DNA from: Eledone cirrhosa
Taxonomy: Eukaryota
NCBI GenBank assembly: GCA_964016885.1
Contig: CAXHJY010000349.1
Coordinates: 26,423-90,422, forward strand
Direction of reading: 5' to 3'
DNA length: 64,000 nt
Shown here: positions 492 through 59,700 of the stretch, one piece after another
How the letters are laid out: every line of letters starts with the position of its first letter
Position numbering within the stretch: position 1 is the first letter of the stretch
The notes under the pieces: model-generated
Told to the model about the DNA's origin: nothing
Database searches by the model: none
Seen by the model: only the letters and a program-made list of their open reading frames with translations
Made by a program: the position numbers and the translations under genes

Positions 492-1637
492 GTAGATAAA
501 TCTACCAAAATATACGGTAGTGTCCAATCCGTATGAAGAACTCAATGTAATCCCAATATAGAAGATATCATAAAAAGAGAAGATGCATTCAAAAATTTAC
601 GATAAAAGTCATAGGAAAACAGAGTCGAGATAAATTAATAAAAACAATGAAATAAAAACAAAGAACAAGTTCCTTATATAACAAAATTCATCATTTTACG
701 ATCGTTTCTGGGATGTATATGTGTGTTGGTATGTATATCATGTTTAAGATCTATGTAAAAATATTACAAATTATCAGAGAAAATATACATACCTTCACAT
801 ATACATGCCGTCCTCAGAAATGATGAGATGTGTTTATTGAAAAAAACAAAGAATTGATATAAAGGTCTGTTTGGGAATAGGTTTTGAATTGACCAATAGA
901 AATGATTTAGAGGTCAAGTTGATAGAATAACAGTAGTAGAAATTAAATCTAGGAGCGGAGGAGTGCAGATTAATGCTTTGAATGAAAAGAATACAATGGG
1001 GAGGAGAAGGATATTAGTGAGAAATACCAATCTTATTTAAACTACAAGATACATAACAGGAAATTAAATTAATTGATAGGTATACTTATAGGGATAAAAT
1101 TATATTAATTCATATGAATGTGATAAATAAAGGAATAAAAAATTAAAGCAATAAAAAATATATATATGGAAAAACTGAGATAGATAAAAAATTTTATAAA
1201 AGACTATTGTATCTATACGGACATTGATGATATTAAAGATATTAATTATAATTAATAATCATAGGTATTAAATGTGATAAATAGGGGATGCGATTAAATG
1301 AAGTAGTGAGGTTAAAAATAATTTTAGGAAAAGAGTGCTATAAGAGGGAAATAAAATTATAAAATTCTCTGTAGTAAAATACTAATTATAGGTTAACTAA
1401 ATTAAAAAAAAACAATTAGAATAATTTGTAAAATATAAGAGTAAGGTATATATTAAATAAGTTTATAATATTTGAAGGTATTATGGTTGGTTTGATGTGT
1501 TGGTGGTATATTTATGATTTTTTACACTTATATACGTTGTATGCACTTATATTCTGTTGTATATTTTTGGTAGTGGAGTAGGAACATTTGACAGTAGGTC
1601 TATTTAAAATGTGATGGTATTTATGGTTTGGTACAAT
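492..1637 (-). mobile_element. Internally deleted copy of Hydra-like PLE family A (3' UTR/pseudo-LTR plus ORF remnants)
   Basis: Reverse complement aligns with 18435-19504 and with 17785-17915; the GIY-YIG segment between them is missing. Confidence 0.8.
688..826 (-). ncRNA. Type I hammerhead ribozyme with about 102-nt stem II (family A)
   Basis: Minus strand: tcatcattt-CTGAGGA-[102-nt self-complementary]-GAAA-CGATCG-TA-aaatgatga; 9-bp stem I and palindromic stem III. Confidence 0.75.
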
Positions 1638-1659
1638 GAACCTTCCTCTCTAAATATAT

Positions 1660-1910
1660 ATGTAAAAACTAAAAAAAATCTTTTCTCCATTTTATTATTA
1701 GGCGTATAAATATGCAATTTATCTGCACTATTCACTTCGGTCGTTGAAAAAAACATATAAAGCTGAAATCGGTACACGATTAAATGCGGAAATCCCTACT
1801 TTATAAATAAATGTTTTGATATGATACTGAAAAAATCCCTCCAGCATTTTTTACTGTATTCTTTTTCCTTTTTACGATTTGTTTACTCGTGTGTCACTTT
1901 TCTACATTCC
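1660..1910 (+). mobile_element. Diverged relative of family M 3' end
   Basis: Shares cagcatttt..ttttcctttttacga..actcgtgtgtcac with 342-390; ends at (TA)n. Confidence 0.5.
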
Positions 1911-1959
1911 ATATATATATATATATATATATATATATATATATATATATATATATATA

Positions 1960-56420: not shown

Positions 56421-56825
56421 TATATATATATATATATATATATATATATATATATATATATAATATATATATATATATATATATACATATATATATATAT
56501 ATATATATACATATATATATATATATATGTATATATATATACATATATATATATATATATGTTTATATATATATATATACATATATATATATATGTATAT
56601 GTATATATATATATATATATATACATATATATATATATATATGTATATATATATATATATATATATACATATATATATATATATATATATATATATATAT
56701 ATATGTATATATATATGTATATATATATATATATATATATATATATATATATATATATATATATATATGTATATATATATATATATATATATACATATAT
56801 ATGTATATATGTATGTATATACATA

Positions 56826-57008
56826 TATTTATTAAAATAACAGATTAAAGTTTAAGCAAAGAATCGTTAAGGGTGAAAGCACCGATTCTTTGCTTAAACT
56901 TTAATCTGTTATTTTAATAAATATTTACTCTACAGTTCTTATATATTTCATATATATTTTCCTTATCGAGCCCTCTTTGGATTTCAGTCTTCAATTTTAT
57001 TATTATTA
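56826..57008 (+). mobile_element. Two-ended terminal fragment of the 30718-33640 PLE family
   Basis: 56826-56866 is inverted relative to 56883-56924; the long tail matches 9505-9600. Confidence 0.8.
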
Positions 57009-57986
57009 CATATATATATATATATATATGTATATATATATATATATATATATACATATATATATATATACATATATACATATATATATATATATATACA
57101 CATATATATATATACATATATACATATATATATATATATATATACATATATACATATATATATATATATATATACATATATATATACATATATACATATA
57201 TATACATATATACATATATATATATATACATATATACATATATACATATATACATATATATATATATATATACATATATATATACATATATACATATATA
57301 TACATATATACATATATATATATATATATACATATATATATATATATACATATATACATATATACATATATATATATATATATACATATATATATATATA
57401 TATATATATATATACATATATATATATATATACATATATATATATACATATATATATATATATACATATATATATATACATATATATATATATATATATA
57501 TATATATATACATATATATATACATATATATATATATATACATATATATATACATATATATATATATATATATATATATATATATATACATATATATATA
57601 TACATATATATATATATATATACATATATATATATATATATACATATATATATATATATTATATATATATACATATATATATATATATATATATATATAC
57701 ATATATATATATATATATATATATACATATATATATATATATATATATACATATATATATATATATATATATATACATATATATATATATATACATATAT
57801 ATATATATTATATATATATATATACATATATATATATATATATATATATATACATATATATATATACATATATATATATATATATACATATATATATACA
57901 TATATATATACATATATATATACATATATATATACATATACATATACATATATATATATATATATACATATATATATACATATATA

Positions 57987-59700
57987 TGAAAAAGAACACA
58001 AGAGCGTCTACAACATCAAAAGATTTTTATTGGCTTACAATGTTTCTTCCTTACGTAACCGTAGGATTCGTCAGAGTTATAGAAGGAGTTTGATTGGTGT
58101 TATGGACTCTACCAACCAAACATTCAAGAACAAAGAGTAAAGAGAGTAAAGAGCAAAAGTAGGGGACGATAAGTCTAATTTTGGTGCGGGAGGGTGCGGT
58201 GTGTGTCCTTGTTTATATGTGTCTGTGTGTGTCGGACACACGTACACATAAAGAAGCTGCCGACCTAAATGTGCCTGTGATGCCTGCCTGAATTTTCGGT
58301 CAGTTGCTGACTTGACCGATTAACCCCACAATTACTACGTAGCGGTTGTTGCACGTGACTGCTGGACCCGGATGAAACGAAGACGAAGAATTTCCTTGCG
58401 TACCGTTTTCTACCACAGATGCGATCTCACCCTGCTTCGTTAATGTCCTATCGACACCAAAGTTCAACCTTCGGGCGAATAGATTTGAATCCAACCACCA
58501 ACAACATAGCTGGATGACCGATAATCACACCAAACCGGAGTACTGTGATCCTTGTGATTTCCAGATATACAACCACTGACACTGTTACGAAGACCAGAAA
58601 ACCATACTCCATATATTGAACCAATTGATTGATTTGTGCGACCAAAATAACACCAAACACATATTGAACTAGGAATATTGGATCCTCCGTCAATGTCTGG
58701 GTGAGCAAAAATAGATTTCTATCTGCATTGGTATTTACAAACTTGTGCATCTGCTGTGGTGTCAACAACAAACGCACATGACCGCACAAATAAACAATGG
58801 ACCATGCCACGTGGCTTGAACCCGTAAGTGAATTGAAGGTTCTGCAACTCTGATACACAGATTATTTATTATTAAGATGTATAAACTTGACATAACTATT
58901 ATCTTATATTCTCTCAACTAATCACACTTGATCATATTTCTCTATCCCGTTTTCTCCCCCCATAATTATTATATCTTTATTATTATTTGAAAAAATCGGT
59001 TTTTTTACATTGTGTTTTCCCCTCCAAATATTCGCTTATATTTCTTTATATATTCTCTATATATTTTTTTTATCTTTATTATTTCCACTTTTATCTTCCT
59101 TTATATTTTACCTTATTCTTACTTTTATATCTTATTATAGTGTAATCTTCCCCATGCCTTATTATACACTATTAATTATAGATTATTATTATTACTCTTT
59201 TTCCATTTCTAATTACCTCATGTACTTTCTCCTCCGCTATATATATATATATATTGTACGCCCTTTGTGTTTGTGTAGCCTCTGCGCACCCTCTGCACCA
59301 TACTATCGACGCCACCCCATCTATGGTTCAGCTAACCACCCGACTCCCGGGAATGAATATGACCGCAGCTAGTAAACAAGGACCCACACCCCACCATCCC
59401 GCACCAAAATTAGACTTATCGTCCCCTACTTTTGCTCTTTACTCTCTTTACTCTTTGTTCTTGAATGTTTGGTTGGTAGAGTCCATAACACCAATCAAAC
59501 CCCTTTTATAGCTCTGACGAATCCTACGGTTACGTAAGGAAGAAACATTGTAAGCCAATAAAAATCTTTTGATATTGTAGACGCTCTTGTGTTCTTTTTC
59601 ATATATACGGCTCTGCTCCAAAGCATAGAGCTAATTATTATGCTGCCAATACCTTAATGGGACACGGGTATACAATACCTAACTCCTATTAACCTAAGTA
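57987..59700 (+). mobile_element. Family G element with inverted 5' pseudo-LTR and HHRs at 58033-58077 (-) and 59511-59555 (+)
   Basis: 57987-58214 is the reverse complement of 59373-59601; gct-CTGACGA-a.tcct.acg gtta cgt.a.agga.a-GAAA-CATTG-TA-agc. Confidence 0.8.

Follow-up and report, generated by a model that had tools for sequence, protein, structure and literature searches.

The 64,000-nucleotide stretch of Eledone cirrhosa DNA analyzed here (contig CAXHJY010000349.1, positions 26,423 to 90,422 of the forward strand; hereafter, the window) is populated by insertions of Penelope-like retroelements, the sister group of telomerase, and of families in which no coding sequence of this kind was found. 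The typical insert lies in TA tracts and consists of two arms of the same family, arranged head-to-head with their 3′ ends pointing outward. The original prediction held that one of these ends is long and the other short, the latter stopping at a fixed internal AT-rich site. We masked the TA tracts, aligned the window to itself by BLAST, and then aligned both outward ends of each insert. Of the same-family tail-out inserts, 17 have both ends free, and every one of them combines a long with a short end, with zero equal-ended cases; the short end passes into TA at an internal site, and the partner end lies 29 to 131 nt further on. If ends pick between two sites independently, the probability of this outcome is at most 7.6 × 10−6 (0.5^17). 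An automatic scan blind to end status regained 14 of the 17 inserts and retrieved no equal-ended ones. Two further same-family pairs were left out of the count because another element replaces one of their ends. In families represented by several copies (B, C, J, A, D, E, and M), the ends occupy two positions. The pattern of paired long and short ends is confirmed as real, and the rule holds for same-family inserts in the window, with end coordinates that had been predicted correctly to within a few bases.

Long ends on the left and short ends on the right characterize B1 (14548..14963) and B3 (54383..56417; arm identity, 99.8%), which belong to a CCHH-type family, as well as the Hydra-type insert J1 (9505..9726; 1-nt center). 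The same disposition is found in C1 (19583..19778; 4-nt center), C3 (25802..26663), D1 (15784..17110; 33-nt tail, with the spacer being part of the short arm), E1 (24190..24639; 5-nt center), H1 (34109..34541; 107-nt tail), F1 (43574..44000) and G1 (46070..46335), both with zero-loop centers, and M1 (59803..60651), a hammerhead tandem-type insert whose long end falls inside a 469-bp unit. The order is reversed, with short left and long right ends, in the Hydra-type insert A1 (17259..19504; 131-nt tail), J2 (56822..57009), and K1 (57981..59702; 95-nt tail). The B2 insert (46663..49001) joins a long-ended arm of 180 bp to a short-ended arm of 2.1 kb, the arms of C2 (24757..24892) do not overlap, and a 310-bp hammerhead tandem (50787..53335) comprises about three units running leftward to the long end and five running rightward to the short one. 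Arm orientation was fixed by an ORF (open reading frame) or a hammerhead core in most families and is presumed in D and G. Families D, E, F, G, and M had been expected to behave alike, and D1, E1, F1, G1, and M1 all are long/short inserts.

Translations of the window revealed in B and B2 a reverse transcriptase (RT) together with a GIY-YIG nuclease that contains CCHH, as well as a linker of the form CX4CxxC; by these marks, they can be assigned to the Neptune/Nematis type (CX2-5CxxC linker plus CCHH nuclease). J and A have a CxCX5C linker, a nuclease core with a single Cys, and no CCHH, and J also displays DKT; these features agree with the Hydra clade as defined by linker, CCHH, and DKT marks in section 11 of Craig et al. 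(2021; PMC8557442). Insertion into (TA)n, another mark of this clade, is shared by J, A, and E, the last of which resembles Hydra-type elements by its C-terminal piece only. The RWK motif is present in the consensus of Hydra-type relatives, whereas the N terminus of these families is missing from the window. The succession of RT and C-terminal GIY-YIG within a single ORF, with readable VY..YIG and YxDD-type motifs, points to endonuclease-positive Penelope-like elements, and all 17 inserts show the inverted 5′-truncated copy and one-sided tail of this group. Full-length relatives matched by the pieces of B and J measure 900 to 1100 and about 700 amino acids, respectively; in Pfam searches with window proteins, RVT_1 was weak for B and B2, and J had no match. 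No ORF for RT/GIY-YIG was found in the window families C, F, G, H, D, and M or in the 310-bp unit. Hammerhead cores point outward in B, E, F, H, and M, and visual inspection identified cores in A, C, J, K, N, and the 310-bp unit as well; none was found in D and G, and the Rfam HH9 match to M stays below the cut-off. The 310-bp and 469-bp (M) tandem units thus combine a hammerhead core, with stems confirmed in M only, with the lack of an ORF, and in these features they look like non-LTR (long terminal repeat) retrozymes.

Hydra-type relatives were sought in metagenomes, genomes, and viral contigs, which yielded 79, 16, and zero loci, respectively. One bin listed as a bacterial genome (G001) contains many long animal-DNA contigs rich in Penelope-like elements. 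As a second animal, it was sampled in 118 stretches, most of them picked by ORF, hammerhead, or TA match and making up a small part of its 12 Mb. Among the scorable same-family tail-out pairs, 24 of 25 are asymmetric and one is short/short, so that long/short pairs amount to 41 of 42 in the window and G001 combined; equal-ended pairs are rare rather than as common as long/short ones. The long end of the G001 families V, O, R, GG, RR, and M was recognized from a second copy, a target duplication, or its passing the short site. The count excludes C39 and C243 (copies of one locus with shared flanks), the ambiguous C402, any pair interrupted by the end of a contig, and inverted matches that have no family end in common; three indeterminate pairs also stand outside the 25. 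Direct repeats of 10 to 19 bp surround 11 of the 17 G001 pairs with non-TA or degenerate flanks, and the six pairs without target duplication include two indeterminate K copies.

At the short ends, the alternating A/T run in common with the target sums to 44 nt over 13 families versus 13.9 nt expected, a sum reached by none of 200,000 random draws. This microhomology is at least 3 nt long in 9 of the 13 families, with M as the exception (1 nt), and it is undercounted in J and E because the alignment walk stopped early for both. The sequence past the long end is out of view for most window families, and where it can be followed, i.e., in M, the 310-bp repeat, and the Hydra-type contigs L023, L057, and L087, the template runs on, and A/T microhomology of 2 to 6 nt (3 nt in M and 2 nt in the 310-bp repeat) is present at this end as well. 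Hammerhead cut sites lie upstream of long and short ends alike. The claim that one cDNA starts at the RNA end consequently fails in these five instances. A hammerhead cut site was also ruled out as the position of insert junctions, since the centers of J and C lie inside the motif or ahead of it, away from the cut.

Full-length Hydra-type loci carry, from the hammerhead to the start codon, two tandem copies of a bulged hairpin motif, which reads GCTC, a pyrimidine, the loop, a purine, a 2-nt bulge, GAGC, and then mostly ACT. Upstream sequence of at least 130 nt is available for 55 loci, of which 31 bear two copies (four of these loci being near duplicates), 15 bear one, and 9 bear none; in shuffles, two copies occurred in only 0.16%. 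The spacing between hairpin 1 and hairpin 2 (59 to 83 nt) agrees with the length of G001 tails (58 to 72 nt). The fifth pair of the stem did not form part of the pattern used for searching. In 27 distinct loci, it obeys Watson-Crick pairing in 52 of 54 instances, usually as U-A in hairpin 1 and as C-G in hairpin 2, and it accumulates seven two-sided changes, a figure matched by none of 500 shuffles. The other four pairs are uninformative on structure because they are fixed by the search pattern and hardly vary. Within the window, hairpin 1 occurs with compensatory changes in six families (A, C, E, F, K, and the J1 copy); its outer pair is A-U in four of them and G-C in two, and the fifth pair covaries. 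It maps to 9545..9590 (minus strand; outer pair G-C) in the J tail, 19378..19454 (plus strand; outer pair A-U, long loop) in the A tail, 19632-19655 and 25851-25874 (both minus) in C1 and C3, 24252-24271 (minus) in E1, 43631-43655 (minus) in F1, and 59610-59631 (plus) in K1. The outer pair is mismatched in J2, the long arm of C2 extends only to the initial base of hairpin 1 (24830), and the motif was not found in H1. Hairpin 2 is shown only in the relatives because the window contains no 5′ end of Hydra-type families. Rfam returned no family at cut-off for six twin-hairpin loci, and the twin motif was not recognized in Poseidon/Neptune-type tails, of which just one tandem copy was inspected. 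An F-like tail-only fragment at 22571-22680 also carries hairpin 1, with a SINE-like (short interspersed element) repeat breaking its short site. In G001, the tails at L096:93-257 and L120:2081-2240 (families U and W) share a different short-repeat pair, possibly the marker of another clade.

The position of the ends relative to these hairpins could be read at 16 loci in which the end of a downstream copy and its template in the upstream copy are both visible. Eleven of these ends fall 0 to 4 nt before a hairpin: six at hairpin 1, three at hairpin 2, and two unassigned. In the TA-targeting families of G001, a hairpin follows the short end at 3 to 6 nt in 8 of 11 cases, and family Q has its short end before hairpin 1 and its long end before hairpin 2, both within one family. 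Similarly, for the window families A, C, E, F, and K, the reference tail has the hairpin at most 5 nt from the short end (5 of 13 versus 0.10 expected), and the same holds for the J1 copy. Hydra-type elements are thus shown to have both end sites 0 to 6 nt 5′ of two tandem hairpins. The internal AU patch that had been predicted as the short-end site is real, but its position in Hydra-type elements is tied to the hairpin 0 to 6 nt downstream, which had gone unnoticed. These two sites may also be where tandem units are closed or rebuilt. A full-length copy at L087:5689-5795 starts at a TA tract directly before hairpin 1, and a TA tract stands just before hairpin 2 at L002:455-480.

The two arms of an insert resemble each other more than they resemble other copies. 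The nearest copy of an arm is its partner in 8 of 9 multi-copy inserts, with J1 as the exception, and arm divergence ranges from 0 to 9% in the window. Arms stop at most 7 nt apart in 5 of 15 window inserts versus 0.42 expected, a coincidence that is expected if both cDNAs run off one broken RNA. In seven of the 12 unequal window inserts, the spacer is part of the long arm; in the other five it is part of the short arm, which therefore has sequence missing from the long arm. Arms overlap in 16 of the 17 inserts, the exception being 24757-24892. Four long arms stop at the short site; no excess is claimed, short arms being common. About eight 310-bp units at 50787-53335 are 100% alike across arms, with a 15-nt duplication at the junction; this array fits one circular or tandem RNA copied from both primers.

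Mixed-family composites depart from the rule. Six are present in the window, and the five with both ends visible comprise approximately one long/long, two short/short, and two long/short cases, with the end status of Q, N, P, and a D-like end assigned from relatives. At 492..1910, an A long arm (minus strand; hairpin 1 at 540-625, minus) faces a D-like long arm (plus strand), so that position 492, listed originally as a long end of A, is opposed by the long end of another family at 1910 and not by its own partner. Positions 27491 and 33640 are not partners of the expected kind either, as both are short ends of a single composite (27493..33640) made of a B arm (minus strand, short end), an inverted B-type N-terminal piece (about 30174-30700, plus strand), and a J arm (plus strand, short end). 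The middle piece matches the N terminus of B-type relatives (E = 6 × 10−19), which rules out a plain two-family fusion. At 30660-30710, where this piece ends just after the RW motif of B and the J arm starts just before FGFK, two distant proteins are joined near homologous positions. A third composite (36397..38620) consists of an M long arm, a 3′-truncated N arm, and an N short arm and is deletion-like. The inner piece is truncated at its 3′ end in three of the six composites, as a deletion between neighboring inserts would leave, and later deletions of this kind are the likely origin of mixed-family composites. Single-armed inserts with either end type also occur, namely, an A-like Hydra-type element at 10106..13030 (plus strand, short end) and an E-type element at 61495..63377 (plus strand, long end), each with its 5′ end adjoining TA.

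The location of Hydra-type ends just before two matching hairpins suggests that one RNA is likely used by two copying enzymes, one starting at each hairpin. We consider it probable that a single RNA is occupied by two RT units, each taking one nicked target strand as its primer, and that the resulting cDNAs are joined head-to-head. Specifically, one RT unit would be placed at each internal site of an uncut RNA, with a few A/T bases at the site pairing with the nicked TA end. In Hydra-type elements, hairpins 1 and 2 are the predicted protein binding sites. Both cDNAs would copy the same RNA toward its 5′ end, stopping independently or running off together at a break, before being linked head-to-head through end-joining. 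We infer this scheme, with hairpins that bind two RT units, joint copying of one RNA, and end-joining, from the arrangement of arms and ends. Two-ended priming and head-to-head joining, as originally predicted, fit the short-arm-only sequence, the nonoverlapping arms, the target duplications in G001, and the parts of a study of the Anolis Poseidon protein that report nicking and extension of both strands in vitro (Frangieh et al. 2024; PMC11167929). More tentatively, and with slightly less than even confidence, we propose that double priming is built in: the duplicated hairpin would dock two RT units 60 to 130 nt apart, copying would start just 5′ of each, and the tail would equal the distance between docks. 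The twin hairpin would then be the mobilization signal of the Hydra clade, borrowed by noncoding passengers, and other clades would have equivalent docks.

Several observations weigh against this interpretation. The hairpin is absent from 7 of the 13 window families (B, B2, D, G, H, M, and 310-bp) and from the G001 families U, W, and AA; 5 of the 16 visible ends miss any hairpin; and the assignment to hairpin 2 comes from three long ends (all three that could be tested). Folding predictions recover the hairpin in some tails but not in others, and seven of eight z-scores are unremarkable. Coincident arm stops number 2 of 21 in G001, which is not significant alone (p = 0.10). Later conversion between arms could produce their likeness, and later deletions could produce unequal arms. 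In the Poseidon assays (PMC11167929), start sites did not differ between strands and had no homology to the cut DNA. Finally, there is the short/short pair of G001 (L100:13357-17916), whose flank is also duplicated and inverted: the left arm plus host flank is an inverted copy of the right arm plus flank, which looks like a DNA-level inversion.

Among other explanations, a single cDNA primed at the long site could fold back, copy itself, and leave at the AU patch by a jump to the other target end. Fold-back would yield strict asymmetry and identical arms from one priming event, and it agrees with the 0- to 5-nt centers of 5 of 15 window inserts, two of them at self-complementary words, and with the microhomology at the short site. 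However, it would need extra deletions to explain the sequence private to the short arm in 5 of the 12 unequal inserts, which amounts to 2.0 kb in 46663-49001, the nonoverlapping arms in 24757-24892 and G001 C61, and the single-armed short inserts, and the same hairpin marker stands at both ends of Hydra-type elements; we regard it as unlikely. Also unlikely is the use of two separate RNAs, i.e., sister transcripts that are perhaps paired through their hammerheads, each copied once. Minimal hammerheads have been proposed to act as dimers in the pertinent passages of PMC4209133, and head-to-head mixed-family composites exist. Two RNAs, however, would not force one-long-one-short pairing, partner arms match each other better than they match other copies, their stops coincide, and half of the composites carry the deletion-like inner truncation. 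A further scenario, which we deem improbable, is that ends are cut from a DNA intermediate by the endonuclease or that the inversion arises by antisense-RNA self-priming, the hairpins being DNA marks. The tail is explained by endonuclease resolution in PMC8557442, and the inversion by self-priming on an antisense template in PMC3846280; the hairpin could form on either strand, in RNA or in DNA. Nevertheless, the tail limits correspond to RT start sites on sense RNA in vitro (PMC11167929), and antisense self-priming alone yields no one-sided tails. The original version, in which one cDNA starts at the RNA 3′ end and the other at the internal AU patch, draws on the AU microhomology at short ends and on long ends whose downstream sequence is mostly out of view, but the template that continues past them with microhomology and the hammerhead cut sites upstream of both ends make it very improbable. 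The chance that the palindromes are read or assembly artifacts is negligible: long TA tracts are close by and the 310-bp array is identical across arms, but arms elsewhere differ by up to 9%, end sites are family specific, and the same form recurs with target duplications in another animal.

Other features of the window lie outside the pattern. Between inserts, TA tracts of 0.8 to 1.8 kb (42667-43573, 45095-46061, 49002-50781, 57010-57978, and 26661-27492) each have one dominant strand-biased interruption, e.g., 76 T>C versus 2 others or 48 T>A versus 1; slippage, reiterative synthesis, or read error may have generated them. Decayed LINE-type (long interspersed element) RT fragments with an RVT_1 match occupy 20880-22509, between TA tracts, and the fragment at 1960-3572, which had no Pfam match, resembles the end of a Helitron-type helicase. 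A SINE tail would agree with a cephalopod host. Rfam matches to microRNA precursors in the window were below the cut-off and fell on palindromes and TA/CA repeats. The inserts recall L1 twin priming, in which one start is the poly(A) end, the other is an internal site of variable position, and the arms are nonoverlapping. Two target ends priming on one RNA and a head-to-head junction are common to both, whereas the present inserts use two internal sites, both fixed, and most of them have overlapping arms (16 of the 17 in the window, as given above); with the long end internal as well, they do not conform to L1-type twin priming.

The architecture of the inserts is already known for Penelope-like elements, to which the repeated hairpin predicting both ends is an addition. 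The sections of Craig et al. (2021; PMC8557442) and Arkhipova et al. (2013; PMC3846280) that deal with insertions describe an inverted 5′-truncated copy and a one-sided tail of 30 to 40 bp. Head-to-head copies, tails often at one end, junction palindromes, and TA targeting in the Hydra clade are shared with those insertions, as described there; the near-absolute counted pairing (41 of 42), tails of up to 131 nt, and two hairpin-tied ends set the present ones apart. The Poseidon system, in the portions of PMC11167929 that concern it, is alike in its two internal RT starts, which bound the tail on unprocessed, uncut RNA, its predicted dimer, and its required RNA motif near the start sites. It differs in having one AC-rich stem-loop at the starts, in contrast to the TA microhomology and two repeated hairpins found here, and those portions of the text contain no model for inverted pairs or long/short pairing. 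Retrozymes also form tandem hammerhead units without an ORF (PMC7229834; bioRxiv 10.64898/2026.07.22.740005); the passages on them mention no tails or inversions, whereas the 310-bp and 469-bp tandems form two-armed long/short inserts. No report of a twin hairpin or of a one-RNA double-priming model was found in the literature covered, with subscription papers and repeat-database notes outside its scope. How tandem and inverted insertions of Penelope-like elements arise is named as an open task in the part of PMC8557442 devoted to it. With a repeated RNA motif from which both ends can be predicted in many hosts, the mechanism becomes directly testable in the existing type of assay. The twin hairpin would explain the one-sided tail, define an RNA signal for cargo insertion, and help to annotate element boundaries.

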